The notes below the pieces were generated by a model. That model was given only the letters and a program-made list of their open reading frames with translations, did no database searches and was not told the DNA's origin. From contig JAFVYC010000003.1 in assembly GCA_017500855.1 (NCBI GenBank), positions 2,144-66,143 on the forward strand: 64,000 bases of DNA, read 5' to 3'. The position numbers and the translations under genes were made by a program. Below are positions 1,724-32,575 of the stretch, piece by piece. This DNA is from Clostridia bacterium. Its GTDB lineage: Bacteria > Bacillota > Clostridia > Christensenellales > CAG-314. Each line of letters opens with the position of its first letter. The stretch's first letter is position 1.

Positions 1724-4684
1724 CTAGAAAAACCTTTTGCCAACTACAAATGCGCAAATTGCCAACAACGCAACTGCTTGTGCGCAAACCACAGCGTTTG
1801 CCGTGTTGCTTGCTTGTTGATGAACGTCGTTTGCATTTTGTACCGTTGTGTTGTAGTCATCCATTGCTTGTTGCAACGATGCACGTTGTGTTGCTACTTC
1901 GGCTTGTTGTTCCGCACTCAAAGAGTTGTAGAAAGCAAGCGCATTGTTGATTGCTTGGAACTGTTGTTGCATTGTGCCAACGCCAAGTTGATCAACGTAG
2001 GGTTGGAATGCTTGCGTTGGTGTGAGTGGGTCAACTTCCCTTGATTGACGACCGCCACAGTCTTGGCAAGTGCGTTGTTCTTCGCCCTTGCTGGTCAACG
2101 TTGGTTGAAGGGCAACTTGCCATTCGCCGTAGTTGTGGTCAAGTTTGTCAATTTGTTCCGTCTTGGTTTGTCCGCAAACAAGGCAAGTCGTGTGCTTGGA
2201 GCCCGGCTTTTTGCAAGTTGCTTCTTGGTCTACTTCCCACTCGCCAAAGCTACATTCGCCAAGTGGAAGCGTCAAGTCTGTCACAAGCGTTCCTTGCTCG
2301 TTGTAGGTTTTGCCACAAACGGTGCAAAGGAAGTGCGCCATTGTGCCGTGTTGTTGGCAAGTAGACGGTTGTTCTTCCACCCAGTTGTTAAGTTCGCAGT
2401 TGCCTGCGGGAACAACGATTGTGGAAAGTTGTTGTTTGTTTTGATCGAAGTACTTGTTGCAAAGTGTGCATTGATAGTGGCCAAGTTGACCTGGCTCTAC
2501 ACAAGTTGCCGAGTATCCTTGGTTCCAACTGCCCAAACTGTGTTGTCCGTTTGTGTCTACAATTGTGGAAAGTGGGTTTTTGTTGCTGTCGAAGTACTTG
2601 TTGCAAACGGTGCATTGGTAGTGACCAACTTGGCCGTTTTCCACACACGTTCCTGCATAACCTTGATTCCAAGCGCCCAAACTGTGGTCTGCCTTGGCAA
2701 TTGTGAGGTTGGTTATTTCTTGCTTGTTGGCATCAAAGTAGGTGTTGCAACCTTGGCAGTAGTAGTGGCCAACGGTACCTGTTTGTTGGCAGGTTGCAGG
2801 CACTTCGGCTTGCCAAGAACCGTAGTTGTGAACGTGCTCTTGTTGCTCTGCTTCGCCGTAGGAAACGGAAATGGACTCGATGTACCACACGCCCGTGCTC
2901 TTGTAGTTGATGGCAAAGTACTTGTCGGTTGTGTTGATTGTCCAAGTTGTGGGCTCAGCGCCAACGGTTTTGATGCCGTGGGAAGTTCCGCCCGTTGCAA
3001 TCTTGGAAGAACCGGGTGTGAAAGGTGTGTTGGACGTGAGAATTTCCACGTTCTTGCCTTCCGACTGCGATGTGATTGTGATTGTCAACAAGGAACCGGG
3101 AAGTTCCGTTGTGTTGTAGATGTAGTAGTAGGATTTGCTACTGTTCATTTGGATGGCGCTTGTGTTGCCACCGTACATGAACGCCTTGCCGGAAATTCCG
3201 TCCGACGTCCAAGTTTGCCATGCGTAGGCGCCACTACCGGAGAAACTGGACCTTGTGATGTCGAAGGACTTCATTTGCACGGAAGAAACGGTGATGCCCG
3301 AAACTGTTTGTTCAAGGTTGCCCAACACGCAAAGCACGCTTGTGGAGCCCTTGGAAAGCGCTGTTTGCCGTGTTGTTGCATCCAACCAACTACAACTGTC
3401 GTTGGCAATTGTTGCCGTTGTGCCGTCGGAGTAGGTCGCCACAACCTTGAGCCCTGCAGGGTTGAAAGTTTCCCCTGCGTAGTAGGAAGTTTTGGTTGGA
3501 GTGCCGGAAACGGCAATGCTTTGGACGCTTTTTACCGTTACCGTTGCCGTTGCCTTGACACTTGGGTTGGATTGGCTGTACGCCGTGATGGTTGCCGTGC
3601 CGTTTGCAACGCCCTTTACCACACCGCTTGCAACTGTTGCAACTGCGCTGTTGGATGTTGTCCACACCAAATCATTCTTGGCGTTGGATGGGGAAAGGCT
3701 GATGCCCAACGAAACGCTTTGTCCTGCAACAACGCTGATTGTGGATGGGTTAATTGTGATGCTTTCCACTTGCGCATTGTTGTTGCCGTACTGCGCAACA
3801 ACTTGCTTCAAAACGTTGTTGTAGCTTTCGCCATCGTAGCAGTAGATTTTTTCGGCATATTCCGGGTGGTCGATGAATGGGTTGCGATTGCCTTGGATGC
3901 CTGCAACCACGTTGTTACGGTAGATTTCTTCCTCGGTTGGCGGTTCTTGCAAGTGCCACTTCATCAAATCGGAAATTTTGCCGATGGTTTTGTTGTTGCC
4001 GGCTCTGTCTACAAAAGACAAACTGTACTTGTCGCCCCAACGAACTTGCAAGTACATCAAAATGCGTGCCGTTGCGCCACGGTAGCCTTCGCCGGGGTAG
4101 AACAACGTTCCGTCGGACGTGGACGCTTGGTAGCAAAGGTTTGTGGAATCGAAGTAGACACCGTTTTTGCCCACGACGTTGGCGTTGGTTTGTGGAACTT
4201 CGCCAAAGCTGTTGTTGCTACGGGTGGAGTTCAAACTGCTGTCGCATGGGCGCAAATGGTGAGCATCCGAGCCTGCCTCGCTGGAAGCAGGGAACGCACT
4301 GCCGTTGTTCTTGGGCCAAACGTGCTCACGGTTGATGCCGTCGTTGAAACTGCCGGAGAACGGAACGGATTTACCCGTGTAGAACAACAAAATGTTGCCC
4401 GGATTGTTTGGGTCGGCATCGGACTGCTTGAACACTTCCCTCAATCCGTCGTAGGTGGTTTGAGTTTTGTGCGTGCTTGTGATGAGTGTTGCAAGTTGCG
4501 CACGGAAGTCGACGCCCGTCAAACTTTCGTTCAAGTTTGCGTAGTAGTTGCCTTCGCCTGTGGTTGTTGCGCTTGCTTCAATTTGCGGAGTGATGCCAAT
4601 CCATCCTGCAAAAGACGCTGTGAACAACACCAGCGCAATGGCAAACAAGCAAATGCGAGTACAAATTCTTTGTTGAGTTTTCAT
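1724..4684 (-). CDS. membrane-anchored extracellular nuclease: endonuclease I (EndA/NucM-type) domain, Ig-like (Big_2/Big_3-type) domains, six Cys-rich modules, C-terminal TM helix
   Basis: Real start is MKTQQRICTRICLFAIALVLF at ATG 4684; the first 65 aa of the track ORF are a spurious extension. Endonuclease I motifs REHVWPKNNG, DAHHLRPCDSSLNSTRSNNSFGEV, NRNPFIDHPE. Big_2-like ITINPSTISVVAGQSVSL...GTATITAYS. C-terminal AVVCAQAVALLAICAFVVGKRFF. Confidence 0.8.
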   Translation of the reverse strand: MKTQQRICTRICLFAIALVLFTASFAGWIGITPQIEASATTTGEGNYYANLNESLTGVDFRAQLATLITSTHKTQTTYDGLREVFKQSDADPNNPGNILLFYTGKSVPFSGSFNDGINREHVWPKNNGSAFPASSEAGSDAHHLRPCDSSLNSTRSNNSFGEVPQTNANVVGKNGVYFDSTNLCYQASTSDGTLFYPGEGYRGATARILMYLQVRWGDKYSLSFVDRAGNNKTIGKISDLMKWHLQEPPTEEEIYRNNVVAGIQGNRNPFIDHPEYAEKIYCYDGESYNNVLKQVVAQYGNNNAQVESITINPSTISVVAGQSVSLGISLSPSNAKNDLVWTTSNSAVATVASGVVKGVANGTATITAYSQSNPSVKATATVTVKSVQSIAVSGTPTKTSYYAGETFNPAGLKVVATYSDGTTATIANDSCSWLDATTRQTALSKGSTSVLCVLGNLEQTVSGITVSSVQMKSFDITRSSFSGSGAYAWQTWTSDGISGKAFMYGGNTSAIQMNSSKSYYYIYNTTELPGSLLTITITSQSEGKNVEILTSNTPFTPGSSKIATGGTSHGIKTVGAEPTTWTINTTDKYFAINYKSTGVWYIESISVSYGEAEQQEHVHNYGSWQAEVPATCQQTGTVGHYYCQGCNTYFDANKQEITNLTIAKADHSLGAWNQGYAGTCVENGQVGHYQCTVCNKYFDSNKNPLSTIVDTNGQHSLGSWNQGYSATCVEPGQLGHYQCTLCNKYFDQNKQQLSTIVVPAGNCELNNWVEEQPSTCQQHGTMAHFLCTVCGKTYNEQGTLVTDLTLPLGECSFGEWEVDQEATCKKPGSKHTTCLVCGQTKTEQIDKLDHNYGEWQVALQPTLTSKGEEQRTCQDCGGRQSREVDPLTPTQAFQPYVDQLGVGTMQQQFQAINNALAFYNSLSAEQQAEVATQRASLQQAMDDYNTTVQNANDVHQQASNTANAVVCAQAVALLAICAFVVGKRFF
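2024..2839 (-). repeat. six tandem ~45-48-codon Cys-rich modules inside the nuclease gene
   Basis: Protein repeats of the form H-x-x-G-x-W-x(6-8)-(A/S)TC-x(3)-G-x(3-5)-C-x-x-C-x(~20), e.g. HSLGAWNQGYAGTCVENGQVGHYQCTVCNKYFDSNK and HSLGSWNQGYSATCVEPGQLGHYQCTLCNKYFDQNK. Confidence 0.8.
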
Positions 4685-6205: not shown

Positions 6206-8719
6206 CTATGCTGCTGCAGAAACGATCAAAACAGGCATATCCCAGCTGATTGTGAGTGTGTACACTTTGCCACCAACTGTGATTGTTTCGCCTTCTGTAC
6301 CGCCCTTAACGTCAACTCTGGAGTCGCCGTTGTGAAGGTGAGGCCACAACCATGTGCTGTCTGCTGCAAGGTCTGTAACGTTAACAACAACTTCGTAGGT
6401 TCCTGCTGCTGCGTCGAAGTTTACAGAGCAAAGACCTGCTGCGAAGTCAACTCCACCAGATTCAAGGTCAACTGTGAGTGCGTTGAGTTGATCAGCTGTC
6501 ATGTTTTCGTAGGTACCTGTAACAATGTAGCATGCTTTGCCTTCTCTTTCTTCAAGGTGTGCACCGGAGATAGAGATAGATGGAGCGCCTGCTTCCTTGA
6601 TGTAGATGATAGCCAAGCCACCCATCCAGCTTGCGCAGTCACCGTTTGGAGCGCCCATTGTCCATTCGAAGCCACCCCAATGGATTGTTGCAGGTGTAAA
6701 AGGTGTGCTCATGTTGCTTCCACCAAGGTGTCCGTAGATGATGTCGCCGTGAGCCCAACCTTCGCCCTTGGAAAGGTCGCACCAAATTTCGAATGCGCCG
6801 TTTTCAGCCTTGATTGTGTAGTTGTTGCCTTCTTCAGTGTGACCGTACCAACGGTATGGCCAGCTTGGGTATTGTTGCAAGCTGAGACCATCGCCGGAAG
6901 CTGCAAACAATGCGTCTGCTTCTGCTGTCAAAGTTTCAATTGTGTGTGCGCTACCATAAGTACCGGAAAGTACCATGTATGGTGTGTCGTTGTCCAATTT
7001 GAGTGTTACGTCTGTGAACTTGATTTCGTGTCCAACGTCGATTGCTCTCAAGTATGGTTCGTTCCAGTCTACACCGTAGATGTATTGGTAACCGTTTGCG
7101 GACATGAACTTGTTAGCGTAGAGACGTGGGCTGCCACCTTCTGGGTCGTAGTCGAAGATTGTGGAGCAACCGATGAGGTCAAGTGTGCTTGCGTTATAAA
7201 CAACTTTGTCGCCCATCTTAACTTCTACTGTGGAGAATGTGCTGTTGAAGCCGTCTTCCAAAGCGGAAAGAGCAAGTGTTGCGTGGAATGCGCCTGTTGC
7301 GTCTACTTCGCCTGTTACAACTTGGCTACCAACTGTCATGCTGATTGTGCCACCTGTGAATGTTTCGCCTTCTTCAAGAGTGAGGTGGTTGAGGTTTACG
7401 TTACCGTCCATTTTGAGAACAGGTTGTCCGTCTACGTCTTCAACGTTCATTGTGTAGGTAACTTTGTTTTGGTTGAAGTATACCTTCAAGGATTCTTTTG
7501 TGCCAGAAACGTAGGTGATGAAGCGGTAGCAGTAGTCTTCGTCGCAAACCATCTTACCAGGTTGTGCCAAAGGAGCGCTGTGGTCGATAGCGAAGTCTGT
7601 TGTGTAGTCCTTGCCACCGATTGTTGTGTTAACACGGATATCCATCCAGCCACCAGCAAATCTGCCACCTTCTGCAGTTGCAAGTTTGTTGAGGTCGAAC
7701 ATCAATGTTTCTGTGGAACCTGTTGTACCGGAGATTTCTGTGCCCTTGAGTTCGTACAAAGAGTTACCTTCGTAGAGGAAGAGGTAAGCGTTTTCTACAC
7801 CGTCAAGTTGAACTTCGATTGTGAGGTAGCACTTTCCGCCCATTTCAACAAGGTCAATGCTCTTGAATGTTACAAGAACTGCATCCCAAACAGCTTCTAC
7901 TACAAGGCTTGTGTTGAGAGAAGCAGGGATTGCTGTGCCGTAGTCCCAACCATTGAATGTCCACCTTTCGTAGCCTGCTTGAGGTGTGAGTTGTGGCAAT
8001 GCAATGTCACTTTCCAATGCAAGGAATGTGAATGTGATAACGCCGTCGTCTGCTTGTGCGTAGTTAGCAATGTCTGTTCTTGCTTCCATAGCTTCAAGGA
8101 ATTCTGCTGGGAATTGACCTGCAGCAGGTTTGATTGTTACTTGTGCTGCAACTGGAGCTGCAAGTTGAACTGCTTCGGATTCTACGCCGTCGAACTTAAC
8201 TTTGAAGGATGTGTCGCCAAGTCCGAATGCTTCGCCTGCATTGTAGATGATGCTGTAGTTATCTACAGTTTCTGTTCTGCCTGTTGCAGCGTAGGTAACT
8301 GTGACAACCATGCCTTCTGCGTTGAGTGCTTCGCCAACAAGGTAGTTGAGTTGTGTGGGAGCAGATGTAACAGCAACGCTTGCAATTTGTTCGCTTGTGT
8401 TAACAACGATTTCTACCGACTTGGATGCTGTGTAGGTGTACTTGCCGTTGCTTCCGCTAACTTTTTTACCACCGGCAACAACGCTGTCGATTTGGTAGTT
8501 TTCACTTGGTGTAACTGTGAAAACAAGTTTTGTTCCCTTTACAACTTCTGCAGGAAGTTCTTCGTAACCTTCCACTGCTACTGTTGCGTTTGTCATTGTC
8601 CAGGTGAGTTGTACTTTTTCAGCGCCAGCGTCTGGGTCACATGCTACAAGAGCAAGTGTGCTGAAAACGAAAACTACAGCCAAAACAAGAACTAGAATAG
8701 AACGTTTTGTGAGTTTCAT
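6206..8719 (-). CDS. 837-aa surface lipoprotein, unknown function (one Ig-like Big_3-type repeat near the N-terminus)
   Basis: ATG 8719 with AAGGAGGAAAATT upstream. MKLTKRSILVLVLAVVFVFSTLALVAC is a lipobox. SVAVTSAPTQLNYLVGEALNAEGMVVTVTYAATG resembles the Ig-like surface repeat. Codon style matches rpmE (ACA/GCA/GTT/CTT/AGA). Sits directly downstream of GH5. Confidence 0.8.
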   Translation of the reverse strand: MKLTKRSILVLVLAVVFVFSTLALVACDPDAGAEKVQLTWTMTNATVAVEGYEELPAEVVKGTKLVFTVTPSENYQIDSVVAGGKKVSGSNGKYTYTASKSVEIVVNTSEQIASVAVTSAPTQLNYLVGEALNAEGMVVTVTYAATGRTETVDNYSIIYNAGEAFGLGDTSFKVKFDGVESEAVQLAAPVAAQVTIKPAAGQFPAEFLEAMEARTDIANYAQADDGVITFTFLALESDIALPQLTPQAGYERWTFNGWDYGTAIPASLNTSLVVEAVWDAVLVTFKSIDLVEMGGKCYLTIEVQLDGVENAYLFLYEGNSLYELKGTEISGTTGSTETLMFDLNKLATAEGGRFAGGWMDIRVNTTIGGKDYTTDFAIDHSAPLAQPGKMVCDEDYCYRFITYVSGTKESLKVYFNQNKVTYTMNVEDVDGQPVLKMDGNVNLNHLTLEEGETFTGGTISMTVGSQVVTGEVDATGAFHATLALSALEDGFNSTFSTVEVKMGDKVVYNASTLDLIGCSTIFDYDPEGGSPRLYANKFMSANGYQYIYGVDWNEPYLRAIDVGHEIKFTDVTLKLDNDTPYMVLSGTYGSAHTIETLTAEADALFAASGDGLSLQQYPSWPYRWYGHTEEGNNYTIKAENGAFEIWCDLSKGEGWAHGDIIYGHLGGSNMSTPFTPATIHWGGFEWTMGAPNGDCASWMGGLAIIYIKEAGAPSISISGAHLEEREGKACYIVTGTYENMTADQLNALTVDLESGGVDFAAGLCSVNFDAAAGTYEVVVNVTDLAADSTWLWPHLHNGDSRVDVKGGTEGETITVGGKVYTLTISWDMPVLIVSAAA

Positions 8720-25976: not shown

Positions 25977-26117
25977 CGTGTTTTGAACACTTGTGCTTGC
26001 TATGCGTTTCCTTGTGGGCTACAAGCAAACTTTGCAACGCTTCCACACCAACCAACCTTGTTGCCACTTGCCAACAAAAACAAAACACAAAATGTGGGCT
26101 CTTTTGCAAATTTGCTG

Positions 26118-26146
26118 TTTACACTTTGCAAAAAATGTGGTACAAT
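26118..26146 (+). promoter_or_regulatory. sigma-A-type promoter (extended -10) of the GH2-tadA unit
   Basis: TTTACA (26118-26123), 17 nt ending in TGG, then TACAAT (26141-26146). Confidence 0.5.
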
Positions 26147-26184
26147 TGTTGGTAGAACACAACTCACATTGGAGGCGACACAAA

Positions 26185-27927
26185 ATGGCACTTCAACAAC
26201 TCAAAACAACTTGGGGCGAGAACGTTGGCGACATGCCCTTGCAAGAATACCCACGCCCACAGTTTCAACGCAAAAGTTACTTGAATCTCAACGGTTGGTG
26301 GGATTGCACTTTTAGCAAAAACCAACAGTTGCCCAAGCACTACGACACAAAAATTCTTGTGCCATTTTCCCCAGAGACGACTTTGTCCGGGGTGGGCAGG
26401 CAATTGCAACCGGACGAATTCCTGTTCTACCGCAGAACAATTTCCTTGGCAAAAAGTTTCAACAAAGGATTGGTTTTGCTCAACTTTGGCGCAGTAGACA
26501 GCATTTGCGACGTGTTTGTCAACGGAGTGCATTGTTGCCACCACGAAGGGGGCTACAACGCATTTTCTACCGACATCACCAAGGCCCTTTCCAACACGAT
26601 GCAAAACGAAATTGTTGTGCGTGTTGCCGACTACTCCGACACAAAGCACTACACCAACGGCAAGCAAGCCTTGAAGCGTGGCGGAATGTGGTACACGGCT
26701 CAAAGCGGAATTTGGCAAACGGTGTGGATGGAAAGCGTGCCCACCGAGTACATTGCTAGCGCACGCATCACGCCGGACATTGACCTTGGCCAAGTGACCA
26801 TTGAACTGGACTGCAACTTCAAAGACAACGTTACCGTTACCGTGTTGGACGGCGACAAGGAAGTTGCCAAAGCCGACGGCAAGGACAAAATTGTTGTGAA
26901 GATGCCCGGCGACTTCAAACTGTGGAGCCCGGAACACCCGCATTTGTACAATTTGTTGCTTGTTTCCCGCAGGGACATGGTACAAAGTTACTTTGGAATG
27001 CGCAAGTTTGGCGTGGAAACCGTTGGCAAGTACAAGCGACTGATGCTCAACAACCAACCCTACTTCCACAACGGATTGCTAGACCAAGGCTACTGGAGCG
27101 ACGGTTTGTACACGGCGCCAAGCGACCAAGCGCTGGTGTTCGACATTCAAACAATGAAAGACCTTGGCTTCAACATGCTTCGCAAGCACATCAAGGTTGA
27201 GCCAATGCGTTGGTACTACCATTGCGACAGGCTGGGAATGCTTGTGTGGCAAGACATGCCAAGCGGTGGCACCTACCAACACAAAATGTCCACTTTGTAC
27301 ATTCCGCACGTGTTCATGTGCATGCGCAAAATGAAAGACAGCAACTACAAGCGTTTTTCCCGCCAAAGCGAACAAAGCAGGGACATGTTCCACACCGAGT
27401 ACGTGGAAATGCTAGACCAACTGTACAACTGCACTTGCATTGCAATGTGGGTTCCGTTCAACGAAAGTTGGGGGCAGTTCGATGCAAAGCAAATTGCCCA
27501 ATTCACCAAGGAGTACGACCCAACAAGAACGGTAGACCACGCAAGTGGTTGGCACGACCAAGGCGGTGGCGACTGCAACAGCATGCACGTTTACTACCGC
27601 AAAATGCGCACCAAGCGTGACAAAAAGCGTGCCGTGGTGCTTTCGGAATTTGGTGGCTACTGCTTGAAAGATGCCGAACACAGTTTCAATCCAGACAAAA
27701 CCTACGGCTACAAACTGTTGGAAAGCAAGGAGCAATTTGGCCAAGAACTTGCAAAACTGTTCCAACGTGACGTGGAAAAACAAATTGCCAAGGGGCTGTG
27801 CGCATCGGTGTACACACAAGTTTCCGACGTGGAAGACGAAGTCAACGGTTTGCTTACTTTCGACCGAAAAGTTCTCAAAGTAGATGCCGACACAATGCGT
27901 GCCATCAACAAAAAGGTAAAACTATGA
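26185..27927 (+). CDS. glycoside hydrolase family 2 (beta-galactosidase/glucuronidase-type)
   Basis: GGAGG SD 9 nt before ATG 26185 (MALQQLKTTWGENVGDMPLQEYPRPQF). GH2-like blocks: FNMLRKHIKVEP, CIAMWVPFNESWG (acid/base NE). Confidence 0.8.
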   Translation: MALQQLKTTWGENVGDMPLQEYPRPQFQRKSYLNLNGWWDCTFSKNQQLPKHYDTKILVPFSPETTLSGVGRQLQPDEFLFYRRTISLAKSFNKGLVLLNFGAVDSICDVFVNGVHCCHHEGGYNAFSTDITKALSNTMQNEIVVRVADYSDTKHYTNGKQALKRGGMWYTAQSGIWQTVWMESVPTEYIASARITPDIDLGQVTIELDCNFKDNVTVTVLDGDKEVAKADGKDKIVVKMPGDFKLWSPEHPHLYNLLLVSRRDMVQSYFGMRKFGVETVGKYKRLMLNNQPYFHNGLLDQGYWSDGLYTAPSDQALVFDIQTMKDLGFNMLRKHIKVEPMRWYYHCDRLGMLVWQDMPSGGTYQHKMSTLYIPHVFMCMRKMKDSNYKRFSRQSEQSRDMFHTEYVEMLDQLYNCTCIAMWVPFNESWGQFDAKQIAQFTKEYDPTRTVDHASGWHDQGGGDCNSMHVYYRKMRTKRDKKRAVVLSEFGGYCLKDAEHSFNPDKTYGYKLLESKEQFGQELAKLFQRDVEKQIAKGLCASVYTQVSDVEDEVNGLLTFDRKVLKVDADTMRAINKKVKL

Positions 27928-28370
27928 CAGAAAACAAATTTATGCAAAAGGCGTTGATGCAGGCGCAAGTTTCGCTACGGCAGGACGAAGTGCCAATTGG
28001 CGCTGTGGTTGTCAAAAATGGAAAGGTTATTGCACGTGCGCACAACACACGCAACAAAAGCAAAAACGCCGTGGAACACGCCGAACTGGTTGCCATACAG
28101 CGTGCATGCAAAAAACTTGGCGATTGGCGTCTTGTTGGGTGCGACTTGTACGTCACGCTTGAACCGTGCGTGATGTGCCTTGGCGCTTGCTACAACGCAC
28201 GCATTTCCAACGTTTACTTTGGCGCTTACGATTTGAGTGGGGCAGGGTGCGTTGCCCTTTCGGAAATGATTGGCAGAACGCTCAACCACGAACTGCAACT
28301 GTGTGGTGGCGTGATGGAAAAGCAATGCTCGGAATTACTGACAAACTACTTCAAAAGCAAACGAAACTAG
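27924..28370 (+). CDS. tadA: tRNA-specific adenosine deaminase
   Basis: ATGA overlap with the GH2 stop. CDA motifs: HAELVAIQ and LEPCVMCLGAC. Confidence 0.9.
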   Translation: MTENKFMQKALMQAQVSLRQDEVPIGAVVVKNGKVIARAHNTRNKSKNAVEHAELVAIQRACKKLGDWRLVGCDLYVTLEPCVMCLGACYNARISNVYFGAYDLSGAGCVALSEMIGRTLNHELQLCGGVMEKQCSELLTNYFKSKRN

Positions 28371-28387
28371 AACTTTTCAACAGCAAG

Positions 28388-28420
28388 GCAAAAGAAAACA
28401 CAATTTTCTTTTGCTTTTTT
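28388..28420 (+). terminator. intrinsic terminator after tadA
   Basis: GCAAAAGAAAA-CACAA-TTTTCTTTTGC followed by T6. Confidence 0.75.
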
Positions 28421-28432
28421 GCTTTGTTACAG

Positions 28433-28461
28433 TTGACAACACGCTTGCAAATGGCTATACT
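28433..28461 (+). promoter_or_regulatory. near-consensus sigma-A promoter of the ABC-importer leader
   Basis: TTGACA (28433-28438), 17 nt, TATACT (28456-28461). Confidence 0.65.
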
Positions 28462-28494
28462 AGTGCCATTACAAAACAAAAAGGGCTACATTTC

Positions 28495-28554
28495 ATGACA
28501 AAACGCTTTTTCGCAGTTGCATACTACTTTTACTACTACTTTACAAACAAGTAA
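28495..28554 (+). CDS. candidate 19-aa Tyr/Phe-rich leader peptide (attenuation sensor)
   Basis: AAGGG (28481-28485) lies 9 nt before the ATG. My translation: MTKRFFAVAYYFYYYFTNK, stop TAA 28552-28554. It sits between a strong promoter and an intrinsic terminator, upstream of an aromatic-amino-acid-family ABC importer. Confidence 0.5.
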   Translation: MTKRFFAVAYYFYYYFTNK

Positions 28555-28616
28555 CAGTAGCGATTGCCGATGGGAAAAAGTAGATTGTAGTTCAACACGA
28601 TTTTTTGCAGTTACTT

Positions 28617-28647
28617 AACTCTTTCGAGCAATCGAAAGAGTTTTTTG
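28617..28647 (+). terminator. intrinsic terminator inside the 5' leader of the ABC operon (attenuator)
   Basis: AACTCTTTCGA-GCAA-TCGAAAGAGTT followed by T6; 52 nt upstream of ATG 28700. Confidence 0.8.
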
Positions 28648-28699
28648 TTTTGCTTGGACGTTTTTGCTTTGTACAAACACCCGAAGGGAGGAGAAGAAA

Positions 28700-29683
28700 A
28701 TGAAAAAGACACTTATTGCGTTGGCACTTGTTGTTGTGATGACACTTGGCTGTTTGGTTGCTTGCACACCCACCGTCACCATTGACCCCAACAAACCACA
28801 CTACGTTGTTGGTATTTGCCAACTGATTCAGCACCCTGCGTTGGACAGCGCAACACAAGGTTTCAAGGACGGCTTGACACAAGCGCTTGAAGCAGAAGGA
28901 CGCACCGTTGAGTTCGACGAAAAAAATGCGCAAGGCGATCCAGACACTTGCGGAACAATTGTCAACACGTTTGTGGCAAAGGGCGTTGACCTTATTCTTG
29001 CAAACGCAACGGCAAGTTTGACTTCGGCAGTCAGCGCAACACGCAACATCCCCATTTTGGGAACTTCCATCACCGACTACGCATCGGCGTTGAACATTTC
29101 CAACTGGAACGGCGTTGTTGGTGGCAACGTTAGCGGAACAAGCGACCTTGCACCACTGGACAAGCAAGCGGAAATGATTACCGAACTGTTCCCCAATGCC
29201 AAAAAAGTTGGTTTGCTGTACTGCTCGGCAGAAGCAAACAGTTTGTACCAAGTGACGGAAATTACAAAGTTCCTTCAACAACAAGGCGTTGAAACAAATA
29301 AATTTGCCTTTGTGGACACAAGCGACCTGCCCGCAGTTACAACTGCAGCATGCGCTTGGAGTGACGTTATCTACGTGCCAACGGACAACATCGTTGCAAA
29401 CAACACTTCCATCATCGACAGCATTTGCCAAGGCGCAAACACACCCGTTGTTGCCGGCGAAGAAGGCATTTGCACAGGCTGTGGCGTGGCAACACTTTCC
29501 ATCAACTACTACCAACTTGGCGTTATCACAGGGCAAATGGCTGCAAAAGTTTTGCTTGGCAAGCAAGACATTTCCACTTTGGCAATTGCTACCGACAGCA
29601 ACCCAACGTTCAAATTTGTTGCAAGTCGTTGCGAAAAGTACGGCATTGAAGTACCTTCCAACTACGTGGCAATTGAAGAATAA
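28700..29683 (+). CDS. ABC importer substrate-binding lipoprotein, ABC_sub_bind (COG2984) family, 'putative Trp/Tyr transport system'
   Basis: GGGAGGAG SD. MKKTLIALALVVVMTLGCLVAC is a lipobox. Family blocks: VVGICQLIQHPALDSATQGF, NAQGD, NVSGTSDL, VGLLYCSAEANS, IYVPTDN, LSINYYQLG. Confidence 0.85.
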   Translation: MKKTLIALALVVVMTLGCLVACTPTVTIDPNKPHYVVGICQLIQHPALDSATQGFKDGLTQALEAEGRTVEFDEKNAQGDPDTCGTIVNTFVAKGVDLILANATASLTSAVSATRNIPILGTSITDYASALNISNWNGVVGGNVSGTSDLAPLDKQAEMITELFPNAKKVGLLYCSAEANSLYQVTEITKFLQQQGVETNKFAFVDTSDLPAVTTAACAWSDVIYVPTDNIVANNTSIIDSICQGANTPVVAGEEGICTGCGVATLSINYYQLGVITGQMAAKVLLGKQDISTLAIATDSNPTFKFVASRCEKYGIEVPSNYVAIEE

Positions 29684-29710
29684 CAGCATTTCTACAATAG
29701 AGAGGTTTGT

Positions 29711-30607
29711 ATGATCTACTTGAACGCCCTTCCCGGAACAATTGGACAAGCGTTGATTTGGGGCATCATGGCGATAGGTTTGTTTATTTCCTACAAAATT
29801 TTGGACTTTGCCGACTTGACGGTTGACGGCTCGTTGGTGACGGGCGCAGGCACTTGCGCCGTGCTACTTGCAAACAACGTGCACGTTGCCATTGCAATTT
29901 TGGTGGCTATGCTTGCAGGCATGCTTTGTGGGCTTGCAACTGCGCTTTTGCACACCAAAATGGGCATTCCACCCATCATGAGCGGTATTTTGACACAACT
30001 TGCGTTGTGGTCGGTAAACTTGAAAATAATGGGCAAAGCCACCATTTCGTTGGTGGGCAAGCAATTGCTTGTTGCCAGAGCCGACATTGCAACTTCCATC
30101 ATCATTTTGGTGGTGTTTGTTGGCGTTGTGATTGGCGCTTTGTACTGGTTTTTTGGCACCAAACTTGGTTGCGCAATTCGTGCAACGGGTTGCAACGAGG
30201 ACATGGCCCGTGCGCAAGGCGTAAACACCAACACAACCAAAATTTTGGCGCTTGTTATTTCCAACGGACTTGTGGCGCTTTCCGGTGCGCTGTTGTGCCA
30301 GTACAACGGCTCGGCAGACATCAACATGGGGCGTGGCGCAATTGTTATTGGGCTTGCAGCGGTTATTATTGGAAACGTGATTGTTTCCAAAATAAGCAGT
30401 AACTTTGCCGTTCAGTTGATTGGCGCAATTGTTGGTTCCATTGTGTACTACCTTGTGTACCAACTTGTTATTTGCTTGGAGTGGGACACCGACTTGCTCA
30501 AACTGCTTTCCGCAGTGCTTGTGGCTGTGTTCCTTGCCGTTCCACATTTCAAACAAAAGTTTGCAAAACCGCACATCGTGCTTGACGGAGGTGAAAACAA
30601 TGCTTGA
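29711..30607 (+). CDS. ABC importer permease (COG4120 type)
   Basis: Polytopic membrane protein in an operon with the SBP and ATPase; family-typical blocks LTVDGSLVTGAG and RATGCNEDMARAQGVN. Confidence 0.85.
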   Translation: MIYLNALPGTIGQALIWGIMAIGLFISYKILDFADLTVDGSLVTGAGTCAVLLANNVHVAIAILVAMLAGMLCGLATALLHTKMGIPPIMSGILTQLALWSVNLKIMGKATISLVGKQLLVARADIATSIIILVVFVGVVIGALYWFFGTKLGCAIRATGCNEDMARAQGVNTNTTKILALVISNGLVALSGALLCQYNGSADINMGRGAIVIGLAAVIIGNVIVSKISSNFAVQLIGAIVGSIVYYLVYQLVICLEWDTDLLKLLSAVLVAVFLAVPHFKQKFAKPHIVLDGGENNA

Positions 30608-31385
30608 CGTACAAAATTTGCTAAAAGTTTTCCACCCCAACACCGTAAACCAAAAAGTTGCGTTGAACGGCATCAGCCTGCACCTTGACGAAGGGGATTT
30701 TGTCACCGTTATTGGTGGCAACGGCGCAGGAAAAAGTACCTTGCTCAACTGCATTGCAGGCGTGTTTGGCATTGAAGGCGGAAGCATTCTTATCGACGGC
30801 GTGGACGTGACAAAAATGCCTGAGCACAAACGTGCCAAGTTTGTTTCTAGAGTGTTCCAAGACCCAATGAAGGGCACTGCTGCCAGCATGAACTTGGAAG
30901 ACAACCTTGCGCTTGCAAGCCAACGTGGCAAAATTCACGGTCTCAAATGGAACGTTTCCAAGAAGGACAAGGCGCACTTTGCACAACTTGTTGAGTCGCT
31001 TGGTTTGGGCTTGGAAAGCCGAATGGGCACCAAAGTTGCGCTGTTGAGTGGCGGTCAACGCCAAGCGCTGACGTTGCTGATGGCAACGATGAACAAGCCA
31101 AAACTGTTGTTGTTGGACGAACACACGGCTGCGCTCGACCCCAAAACTGCCGAAAAGGTGCTTTCGCTGACACGTGACATCACTGCGCAAAACAACCAAA
31201 CGACGGTGATGATAACGCACAACATGAAGGACGCCATTGAAATGGGCAACAAACTGATCATGATGAACGAAGGTCGCATCATCTACACTGCAAGTGGCGA
31301 AGAAAAACGCAACCTCACCGTAGACGACTTGTTGGCAAAGTTCCGAGAAATTGGCCAACAAAACGACAGAATTTTGCTTAGCTAA
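30600..31385 (+). CDS. ABC importer ATP-binding protein (COG1101 type)
   Basis: ATG 30600 overlaps the permease end. Walker A GGNGAGKST, signature LSGGQRQ, Walker B LLLLDEHTAALD. Confidence 0.9.
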   Translation: MLDVQNLLKVFHPNTVNQKVALNGISLHLDEGDFVTVIGGNGAGKSTLLNCIAGVFGIEGGSILIDGVDVTKMPEHKRAKFVSRVFQDPMKGTAASMNLEDNLALASQRGKIHGLKWNVSKKDKAHFAQLVESLGLGLESRMGTKVALLSGGQRQALTLLMATMNKPKLLLLDEHTAALDPKTAEKVLSLTRDITAQNNQTTVMITHNMKDAIEMGNKLIMMNEGRIIYTASGEEKRNLTVDDLLAKFREIGQQNDRILLS

Positions 31386-31418
31386 CACACAAAAATTTGA
31401 CGGTCGGCGCACAAAGCG

Positions 31419-31447
31419 TTGACCGTTTTGCTTGTTAGTGGTACAAT
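31419..31447 (+). promoter_or_regulatory. sigma-A-type promoter (extended -10) of nagA
   Basis: TTGACC (31419-31424), 17 nt ending in TGG, then TACAAT (31442-31447). Confidence 0.5.
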
Positions 31448-31477
31448 GAAGAAAAACAAACGCAAAGCGAGGTTACC

Positions 31478-32575
31478 ATGATTCTGTACAAAAACGGACT
31501 TGTGCTTTTGGGCAAAAAACTTGTCAACACAAGCATTGTTGCCAACCGTGGCAAAATTGTTGAAATTGCGCCGGACATTGTTGCCGACAGCCAAACGGAA
31601 GTTGTTGACTGCACGGGCAAATTCATTTTGCCTGCATTCGTGGATTTGCACGTTCACGGGGGAGGGGGGTACGATTTCAACACTGCCAACCTTGAACAAA
31701 TGGGCAAAATTGTTGAGTTCCACGCCAACCACGGTGTGGGCACTTTGTTCCCAACGCTTGTTGCCGACAGCGACGAAAACCTCTCGAGGCAACTGCAACT
31801 GATAGCCGAACTTGCCAAGGAGTACCCTGAAATCAAGGGCATCAACTTGGAAGGCCCGTTCCTGAGCAAACAAAAGTGTGGAGCAATTGCGCCACAATTT
31901 TTGCAAAACCCAAGCATGGAAAAATTCTTGCACTACCAACAATGCGCAAAGGGAATGATCAAAATTGTGACCGTTGCGCCCGAACTGCCCAACGCCATCA
32001 GTTTGACGGAAGAACTTTCGGCAAACGGCGTGATTGTTTCGCTGGGGCACAGCAATGCGCCTGCAAGCGTTGTGGAAAAGGCGTTGGAAGCCGGTGCAAA
32101 ATGCTTCACACATTGGGGCAACGCAATGAGCCAAATTGACCGACTGGACGTTGGCGTGATGGGTAGCGCACTTGTAGACGACGGTTGTTTTGTGGAAGTC
32201 ATTTGCGACGGACACCACGTTTCCAAACAAGCCGTGCAGTTGCTTGTCAAAACAAAAGGCGCAAACAAAGTTGTGGGCATTTCCGACAGCATCATGGCAA
32301 CGGGGCTTGCCGACGGCAACTACAAATTGGCTGGTCAAGACGTGGTTGTTCAAGGCGGACAAGCATTTTTGACAGACGGCAAAACTCGTGCGGGAAGCAC
32401 CTTGACACTTGACGTTGCGTTGGCAAATTTGGTGACTTTTTGCAAACTTCCACTTGCCGAAGCCATTGCAATGCTCACCACCGCCCCTGCAAAACTTGTT
32501 GGACTTTCCCACCGAATTGGCACGATAGAAATTGGCAAGGATGCCGACTTCACCATTATGGGTGGCATGGCGTAG
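31478..32575 (+). CDS. nagA: N-acetylglucosamine-6-phosphate deacetylase
   Basis: Amidohydrolase metal motif FVDLHVHGGGGYDF, plus VSLGHSNA and FTHWGNAMS blocks typical of NagA. Confidence 0.88.
   Translation: MILYKNGLVLLGKKLVNTSIVANRGKIVEIAPDIVADSQTEVVDCTGKFILPAFVDLHVHGGGGYDFNTANLEQMGKIVEFHANHGVGTLFPTLVADSDENLSRQLQLIAELAKEYPEIKGINLEGPFLSKQKCGAIAPQFLQNPSMEKFLHYQQCAKGMIKIVTVAPELPNAISLTEELSANGVIVSLGHSNAPASVVEKALEAGAKCFTHWGNAMSQIDRLDVGVMGSALVDDGCFVEVICDGHHVSKQAVQLLVKTKGANKVVGISDSIMATGLADGNYKLAGQDVVVQGGQAFLTDGKTRAGSTLTLDVALANLVTFCKLPLAEAIAMLTTAPAKLVGLSHRIGTIEIGKDADFTIMGGMA

Follow-up and report, generated by a model that had tools for sequence, protein, structure and literature searches.

The pheL-pheA and pheM-pheST leaders of Escherichia coli are classical leader-peptide attenuators of the trp/his/phe type. 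Here we describe a leader of comparable build in a Clostridia bacterium (Christensenellales; CAG-314). It lies within a stretch of 64,000 nucleotides (nt) of contig JAFVYC010000003.1 (GenBank assembly GCA_017500855.1, positions 2,144 to 66,143), hereafter called the window, in front of an operon for an ATP-binding cassette (ABC) importer with a lipoprotein substrate-binding protein (SBP). As in pheL and pheM, a short and apparently translated leader open reading frame (ORF) carries a run of cognate aromatic codons, and a terminator stands before the first structural gene. Mutually exclusive helices 1:2, 2:3 and 3:4 can likewise be assigned, helix 2:3 being a candidate here, and the predicted signal is tRNA charging, read through the position of the ribosome. 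The leader differs from pheL and pheM in its clostridial host, in its target, an ABC importer, in having no sequence or Rfam similarity to them, and in a codon run that is mainly tyrosine (5 Tyr and 2 Phe in 7 codons).

In content, the nearest known case is the aroR leader of Corynebacterium glutamicum, located before aroF (Neshat et al. 2014), which combines Phe and Tyr codons, aromatic genes and ribosome stalling; it has a single Phe-Tyr-Phe triplet and is reported in a review to respond to Phe, not to Tyr (PMC11802643). It is actinobacterial and serves a biosynthetic operon, whereas the leader in the window, with its seven-codon run dominated by Tyr, precedes a transporter. For the Bacillota, predictions exist of His-rich leader attenuators in the B. 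cereus group, Peptostreptococcaceae and Erysipelotrichales (PMC9413887). A Phe-type upstream ORF, uORFC-13-1, precedes aroF in Acholeplasma, a wall-less relative (PMC8632094). These cases present the same device, predicted by comparative genomics and replacing the usual T-box or repressor, and uORFC-13-1 also ties an aromatic codon run to a terminator. They differ from our leader in being His leaders, or Phe leaders derived from a U run, and in belonging to other genes and other sequence families; none is Tyr-rich and none is found on this transporter. A member of the same transporter family, trpX of S. suis, is under T-box control (PMC9382623). The window leader shares with this T-box, and with those of two orthologous loci described below (L085 and L040), the transporter family, a signal that is predicted here to be uncharged tRNA, the choice between terminator and antiterminator, and the position before the SBP gene. 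Unlike them, it shows no Stem I, specifier loop or T-box sequence in Rfam scans; a T-box binds tRNA directly and without translation. No earlier description of a Tyr-run leader peptide was found in the open-access literature. What is new here is the amino-acid specificity, the lineage and the target; the principle is already known.

A first-pass annotation, made from the letters of the window alone, had proposed a ribosome-mediated attenuator sensing aromatic amino acids at this position, and the comparative evidence presented in this study supports that proposal. We consider it likely that the element is a leader-peptide (ribosome-mediated) transcription attenuator, tuning a tyrosine ABC importer to charged tRNA-Tyr and probably also to charged tRNA-Phe.

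The leader ORF and its conservation

The unit begins with a sigma-70-type promoter on the forward strand, on which all its features lie (28433..28461; TTGACA 28433-28438, a 17-nt spacer and TATACT 28456-28461). In a consensus pattern scan it agrees with the consensus at 11 of 12 positions, which ties for the best score between 27500 and 33500. TTGACA-17-TATACT is also read before the leaders of L001, L002, L025, L081, L082 and L110 (L numbers denote the loci compared). Transcription presumably starts at about 28468. A Shine-Dalgarno-like AAGGG (28481..28485) lies 9 nt 5' of the ATG at 28495; in homologous leaders AAAGGA, AAGGAA or AAGGGAGG occupies this place, with unchanged spacing to the ATG. 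The leader ORF (28495..28554), assigned from the sequence and from conservation in homologues, comprises 19 codons and a TAA stop and reads MTKRFFAVAYYFYYYFTNK. Its codons 10-16 (28522..28542) are Tyr Tyr Phe Tyr Tyr Tyr Phe, a conserved run which we propose as the site of ribosome stalling. All five Tyr codons of this run are TAC, which is explained by the extreme Tyr codon usage of neighbouring genes in the window: the five counted (25993-32575), namely nagA, the three ABC genes and the GH2 gene, contain 52 TAC and no TAT, with even Phe usage (37 TTC, 31 TTT). Between the ORF and the SBP gene lies an intrinsic terminator (28617..28646), evident in the sequence and in a terminator scan. It consists of the 11-bp stem AACTCTTTCGA-GCAA-TCGAAAGAGTT (28617-28642) with a GCAA loop and a T6 run (28641-28646) that ends 52 nt 5' of the SBP gene. 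Promoter, AAGGG, ORF and terminator are thus present as the first-pass annotation had read them, the terminator with compensatory changes in homologues (see below). It had further named two pairings within the leader: CTACTTTT (28524-28531) is indeed the exact reverse complement of AAAAGTAG (28576-28583), and CTACTTTAC and GTAACAGTAG pair imperfectly.

Orthologous loci were collected by an SBP-alignment scan of species-representative genomes, which gave 80 loci, and extra loci were added by contig look-ups. The closest one bearing an organism label belongs to an uncultured Oscillospiraceae bacterium (83% SBP identity), and the window is very probably from this part of the Clostridia. The leader ORF is kept in all six distinct close loci with upstream DNA (L001, L081, L082-L084 and L216; SBP identity 79-85%) and also in several distant loci (54-62%). 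Nine leaders, with SBP identities of 54-85%, have the window architecture of promoter, ribosome-binding site (RBS), ATG, about 19 codons and terminator, and are referred to as group A. Within this group, the leaders of L001, L216, L081 and L082-84 (79-85%) read MA[KQN]R[MI]FAVAYYFYYYFTK[MA], those of L002, L206 and L213 (about 57%) MN[QK]QAFAFAYFY[YF][YN]YFT..., and that of L025 (54%) MKNLYFASEYYYYYFTVQNVM. The gene 5' of the unit varies (window, tadA; L081 and L216, Fe-ADH; L082, PNP_UDP); the leader unit therefore moves together with the ABC operon.

Two variations were seen within group A. In L206 (1249-1314) an AAC (Asn) codon replaces Tyr inside the run, which reads YFYFNYF, as compared to YFYFYYF in the close relative L213; a single regulatory codon can therefore be lost. 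L001 (3721-4000) and L216 (900-1200) have an extra 280-300 nt or so between the attenuator terminator and the SBP gene that is missing in the window. Over 198 nt these spacers agree to 92%; that of L216 has an internal GATGGCAAAAGGCCTGCACAAT repeat. The extra stretch may contain a second promoter.

Other leader types have little leader sequence in common; what each retains is RBS and ATG, a Tyr/Phe run in frame with that ATG, a stop codon and then a terminator. The ORF of L054 reads MKNRRFYAAYYFYYYFTVSNSCLCCA, and those of group B read MKKTNLYFYYYFYFKS (L011a), MKRITANAFYYYYYYFRNRVI (L011b), MKKVNFVYYYYYVSVLVNN (L208), MKKFYFYFYYFPKALV (L215) and MKKSYFYYYYFTVLVK (L218). All leaders of groups A and B, as well as those of L054 and L110, retain the ORF with its RBS and frame. 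In L011, a Christensenella genome, two full units of leader ORF and terminator stand in tandem before one SBP gene (3694-3990; MKKTNLYFYYYFYFKS, then MKRITANAFYYYYYYFRNRVI), an arrangement which is, as read from the sequence, a double attenuator. Group C (L023, L050, L210, L042, L076, L055, L074, L038 and L065) is a looser set with a second architecture: longer, aromatic-rich ORFs of 28-54 codons followed by a terminator. These leaders lie 100-250 nt 5' of the SBP gene and have a strong GAAAGGAG RBS; an in-ORF hairpin, GCYCGC-(UAU/UUU-rich loop)-GCGGGC, is followed by further Tyr/Phe codons and a GC-rich terminator.

Several features indicate that the leader ORF is translated. In relatives the Tyr codons switch between TAC and TAT with Tyr retained (e.g. 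TAT TAC TAT TAT TAC TAC in L011b), Tyr and Phe exchange positions within the runs, and in every case the run is in frame with an RBS-bearing ATG. When the window, L001, L081 and L082 are compared, codons 7-17 are invariant in amino acid with one synonymous TAC/TAT change, and codons 2, 3, 5, 18 and 19 vary non-synonymously. The leader ORF thus behaves like a codon counter that is translated, and unlike a gene for a peptide or a simple RNA motif.

The runs are also specific in location. In the window and the 80 loci (about 0.75 Mb), runs of five or more Tyr/Phe codons, three or more of them Tyr, are confined, on the plus strand, to the 700 nt 5' of the SBP gene, where they occur in nine sources. 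A minus-strand run near L014 sits in AT-rich spacer DNA and was regarded as a chance occurrence. Trp-rich mini-ORFs 5' of L041 and L052, which resemble Trp leaders, proved to be the out-of-frame 3' end of the upstream gene. The leader-bearing loci are labelled Oscillospiraceae, Christensenella, Clostridia or just 'bacterium'; among the loci collected, none of those labelled Lachnospiraceae has such a leader. The first-pass annotation had asked whether orthologous leaders keep a Tyr/Phe-rich ORF while synonymous sites drift, and had named the lack of such an ORF as a refutation. The outcome favours its proposal: the ORF is kept in the six close loci and in several distant ones, though not in L085 and L040, which carry a T-box, nor in the majority of the distant orthologues, which have no leader.

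Alternative structures of the leader RNA

The whole leader folds more stably than 200 of 200 shuffles (z = -4.4). Its 5' helix, P1, is formed by region 1 (28493..28525), which comprises the start-codon region (28493-28496 and 28498) and GCAGUUGC-A-UACU (28513-28525, codons 7-11), and by a switch segment downstream of the ORF, region 2 (AGUAGCGAUUGCCGAUGGG, 28556..28574). Within P1, GCAGUUGC (28513-28520, codons 7-9) pairs with GCGAUUGC (28560-28567), UACU (28522-28525) with AGUA (28556-28559), and the start-codon region with the invariant GAUGG block (28568-28573). Unguided RNAalifold on the nine group-A leaders (alignment A4) recovers P1, including the pairing of start codon and GAUGG, together with the terminator. 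Compensatory changes are found in both: in P1, U:A to G:C in L025 and, at the first position of codon 2, G:C to A:U; in the terminator of homologues, A:U to G:C as well as G:C to U:G. By pair count, 97.5% of P1 and terminator are paired, three pairs show double changes and none of 500 shuffles reaches the covariation score, as compared to 36-56% paired in slid-helix controls; coming from nine related sequences only, this covariation is supportive and not proof. The minimum free energy (MFE) fold of the single sequence uses another register of P1 (GCA with UGC, CUACU with AGUAG), which was rejected since covariation favours GCAGUUGC with GCGAUUGC.

Region 2 is invariant in the nine leaders as GUAGCG[A/C]UUGC[C/U]GAUGG. 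Besides region 1, its part 28561-28574 can pair with the 5' arm and loop of the terminator. The first-pass annotation had seen no convincing antiterminator by eye; folding now yields a candidate, CGAUUGC-CGAUGGG (28561-28574) with UCUUUCG-A-GCAAUCG (28620-28634), which comes without covariation. Its 3' arm, region 3 (UCUUUCGAGCAAUCG, 28620..28634), extends over most of the terminator 5' arm and over the loop into the first 3 nt of the 3' arm, a layout that differs from pheL and pheM. The candidate shares segments with P1 and with the terminator and therefore excludes both. Enclosed in it is a spacer hairpin, P2 (28578..28616; AAGU-A-GAUUGUAG ... UUGCAGUU-ACUU), predicted in the window and in homologues, where its base AAGUA/UACUU is kept and its interior is variable. 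An initial antiterminator idea, GGRRAAAA with CUCUUUC, failed on by-eye comparison of homologues; CGAUUGC-CGAUGGR with YCUUUCG-(A)-GCAAUCG holds.

The AUG within the invariant GAUGG is the start of a mini-ORF (28570-28590 in the window), which reads MGKSRL* here; its counterparts in homologues read MEKSR.. or MEKISL*. This mini-ORF has no RBS and begins 15 nt past the leader stop. Pairing of GAUGG with the start-codon region and with the terminator arm is a simpler account of its conservation than re-initiation at the mini-ORF.

Folding was compared with and without a ribosome on the leader. In the full leader without a ribosome, the MFE structure is P1 plus terminator, and the terminator has a probability of 0.95. 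A mask placed as for a ribosome with its A site at codon 10 lowers this probability to 0.50. In 28555-28650, the part of the RNA that stays accessible with a ribosome on region 1, the antiterminator (-22.5 kcal/mol) and the terminator (-22.6 kcal/mol) are of nearly equal energy. In nascent transcripts ending at 28634, 28638 and 28642 the MFE fold is the antiterminator. Every group-A leader folds the antiterminator once region 1 and the start region are masked. Beyond group A, in L054, L110, L011b and group B, a segment at or just past the stop codon pairs with the terminator 5' arm; a ribosome at the stop codon would cover this segment, following the same logic as in group A. Against dinucleotide shuffles, the group-B antiterminators reach p <= 0.05.

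Proposed mechanism and alternative explanations

The proposed attenuator would work as follows. Transcription would begin near 28468 and a ribosome would translate the 19-codon leader. With ample Tyr and Phe, the ribosome would pass codons 10-16, reach the stop codon and depart. Region 2 (28556-28574) would then pair with region 1 (codons 7-11 and the start-codon region) to give P1; with region 2 so occupied, the terminator (28617-28646) would form and the transcript would stop before the SBP gene. When charged tRNA-Tyr or tRNA-Phe is short, the ribosome would stall in the Tyr/Phe run and cover region 1. The freed region 2 would pair with the emerging 28620-28634, the antiterminator being made ahead of the terminator 3' arm, and RNA polymerase would continue into the importer genes.

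A number of observations weigh against this mechanism. The antiterminator helix shows no covariation at all, both strands being invariant in group A, and its stability against dinucleotide shuffles is modest (z = -1.3 and p = 0.125 in the window; p = 0.02-0.18 in group A). These values refer to the nascent fold; in a shuffle test of the duplex alone, region 2 against the terminator arm, the window is somewhat weaker (z = -0.65). The invariance fits a three-way constraint, in which CUCUUUC has to serve as partner of GAAAGAG (terminator) and of GAUGGR (antiterminator), and GAUGG has to pair with the start-codon region too. In folding, a ribosome stalled at codons 14-15 frees region 1 again: the probability of the terminator returns to 0.84 with the mask at codon 13 and to 0.94 at codon 15, because region 1 is then free behind the ribosome. 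In L001, L081 and L082 one stalled ribosome is insufficient to displace the terminator in equilibrium folding, because the start region pairs strongly with region 2, and a queued second ribosome has to be assumed. Among the distant orthologues, the majority show a simple promoter without a Tyr/Phe leader. Finally, the specifier of the T-boxes in L085 and L040, read by what we take to be the Stem I layout of glyQ, is presumably GAA-UUC (Phe). The SBPs of both loci carry the Glu/Tyr pocket residues of the tyrosine-binding protein CD0873 (see below), which does not match a UUC specifier as read. The effector may be Tyr, Phe or both, and dual sensing is plausible given the mixed Tyr/Phe runs.

The T-boxes of L085 (74% SBP identity; 411-657; 92.3 bits, E = 6e-21) and L040 (53%; about 300 nt 5' of the SBP gene) take the place of the leader. 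They escaped a strict T-box pattern and were recovered by a looser pattern and by Rfam. In view of these T-boxes, control by tRNA charging recurs for this operon, and the occurrence of T-box, leader or neither among orthologues shows, as far as can be read from the sequences, regulator turnover and not refutation of the attenuator. In the window itself no Rfam family reaches threshold over the whole 64 kb. In agreement with the first-pass annotation, no T-box (RF00230) is found in it at the gathering score, nor at E <= 10 in a permissive scan of 28300-28800. The Phe_leader model (RF01859) gives 21.3 and 15.1 bits, as compared to a gathering score of 55, at 28390-28497 and hence off the element, and no Rfam family was found at the leader position in 33 related loci. 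Sub-threshold matches to PyrR, L10_leader and PyrG_leader in 28300-28800 were rejected, the alignment being mostly over the terminator stem and T run. Further RNA elements were noted elsewhere in the collected loci. L023 has a T-box downstream of the operon (7131-7375, +) and L038 one divergent from it (3237-3487, -); those genomes do use T-boxes for other genes. L004 has a lysine riboswitch (494-663, -) and L021 a Clostridiales-1 RNA (1176-1333, -).

The best surviving alternative, which we nevertheless regard as improbable, holds that the ORF is untranslated and that a UAC-rich RNA element sets the choice between terminator and antiterminator when tRNA-Tyr or a protein (compare TRAP and PyrR) binds to it. 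The strong structure of the leader speaks for it, as do two blocks invariant at the nucleotide level, GUAGCGAUUGCCGAUGG and CUCUUUC; these blocks, however, are accounted for by their double duty in P1, antiterminator and terminator. A conserved in-ORF hairpin, GCYCGC-loop-GCGGGC, is present in group C, but dissimilar leader families share just RBS and ATG, the in-frame Tyr/Phe run, the stop and the terminator. Weak sub-threshold Rfam matches to the PyrR and L10 leaders would also suit an RNA element, yet they lie far under the gathering scores and cover mainly the terminator stem and T run. Moreover, Tyr/Phe swaps (UAC to UUU/UUC) and TAC/TAT drift would break a specific binding site or the pairing with the tRNA-Tyr anticodon, whereas the coding logic of the attenuator survives them.

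It is more doubtful still that the peptide itself is functional, be it as a small hydrophobic peptide or as a nascent arrest peptide responding, like TnaC, to free tyrosine instead of counting charged tRNA. Families differ freely in the length, the ends and the run order of the peptide (YYFYYYF, YFYYYYF, YYYYY, FYYYYYYF, YFYFYYF), although the core A-x-A-Y-Y-F-Y-Y-Y-F-T is invariant in close relatives and, in many leaders that otherwise have nothing in common, the run is followed by F-T. The A-x-A part of the core corresponds to GCNNNNGC of P1, which covaries with its partner, and UUU-ACN is able to pair with GUAA at the stop codon. Induction by surplus tyrosine would be senseless for an importer or for the aroF-tyrA-type operon of L110. 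That there is no regulation here at all, merely a chance mini-ORF beside a leaky terminator or a plain 5'-untranslated hairpin with control elsewhere, would agree with the simple promoters in the majority of the distant orthologues and with the 280-300 nt or so between terminator and SBP gene in L001 and L216, room for another promoter, but is hardly credible for a module that is kept over 54-85% SBP identity and before a different tyrosine-related operon (L110), with Tyr/Phe runs specific in location and a leader structure that covaries.

The importer, its ligand and the wider regulon

The operon controlled by the putative attenuator encodes three proteins on the forward strand. The SBP gene with its RBS GAAGGGAGGAG (28684..29683) has its ATG at 28700-28702 and encodes a lipoprotein (PF04392, E = 4e-56); its frame begins at 28700, not at 28701. 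An ABC permease gene (29711..30607; PF02653, BPD_transp_2) and an ABC ATPase gene (30600..31385; PF00005) follow; the ATPase has 261 amino acids, the same length as in homologous loci. These domain matches bear out the transporter type named by the first-pass annotation.

The closest solved homologue of the SBP is 6HNI (C. difficile CD0873), followed by 3LKV and 3LFT; these three bind Tyr, Phe and Trp, respectively (PMC6816091). In CD0873, Glu-263 selects the Tyr hydroxyl group and Tyr-279 keeps Trp out (PMC6816091). E254 and Y270 of the window SBP align with these residues, and G-E and Y are present at the two positions in 92 of 92 SBP orthologues collected. By NCBIfam the SBP is near TrpX and yet under its cut-off (215 vs 390 bits); it is therefore a relative, and not an equivalent, of the Trp binder. 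With the Tyr-specificity residues of CD0873 kept, the SBP is predicted to bind tyrosine.

The same kind of leader was found before another operon in L110. This leader, with a TTGACA-17-TATACT promoter, the ORF MKKSFTLASYYYFYYYFTFSGSKVTL and a terminator, stands before a gene for a DAHP synthase (PF00793 with a ferredoxin-like domain), which is followed by one for a prephenate dehydrogenase, as in an aroF-tyrA-type operon. By its predicted products, this operon covers the entry step of aromatic synthesis and then the tyrosine branch. L110 came from a pattern scan of metagenomes for TAYTWYTWYTAYTAYTAYTTYAC; among the matches listed only L110 and L125 were usable, L125 being identical to L002. 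The remaining matches listed were nearly all (TAY)n microsatellites, on contigs that are apparently eukaryotic or AT-rich, and were discarded. The breadth of the regulon beyond the importer is thus one locus.

In the window, the unit is preceded by a tadA-like deaminase gene and its terminator. The hairpin 3' of the tadA-like gene (28385-28417) is flanked by a T run and, on its opposite side, by an A run, and has terminator scores in either direction. After the ABC ATPase gene, a terminator scan finds a terminator-like hairpin (31399-31427), and the nagA gene follows at 31478. This hairpin overlaps a promoter-like TTGACC-17-TACAAT with an upstream TG (31419-31447), which faces nagA.

A wider reading, to which we give even chances, is that in gut Oscillospiraceae, Christensenella and related Clostridia a lineage-wide tyrosine regulon, made up of the importer and of genes of the aroF-tyrA type, is built on Tyr-codon-run leaders; these would stand in for the T-boxes of other Bacillota and represent the first class of attenuators tuned mainly to tRNA-Tyr. 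If so, one invariant GAUGG would alternately close the leader start codon and the terminator 5' arm, and some genomes would carry tandem double units. Tyrosine would join the amino acids that are sensed by leader-peptide attenuation. Uncultured gut Clostridia would use, on the same transporter, a mechanism best known from Proteobacteria, beside T-boxes or in their place, and the operon would offer a clean natural case of regulator swapping between T-box, leader peptide and none. The combination of RBS, ATG, Tyr/Phe run and terminator would provide a simple signature for tyrosine-regulated genes in metagenome-assembled genomes. The leaders would also be a regulatory argument for annotating this PF04392 group of transporters, which is widespread, as importers of tyrosine (or of aromatic compounds), and this bears on tyrosine and p-cresol metabolism in the gut.

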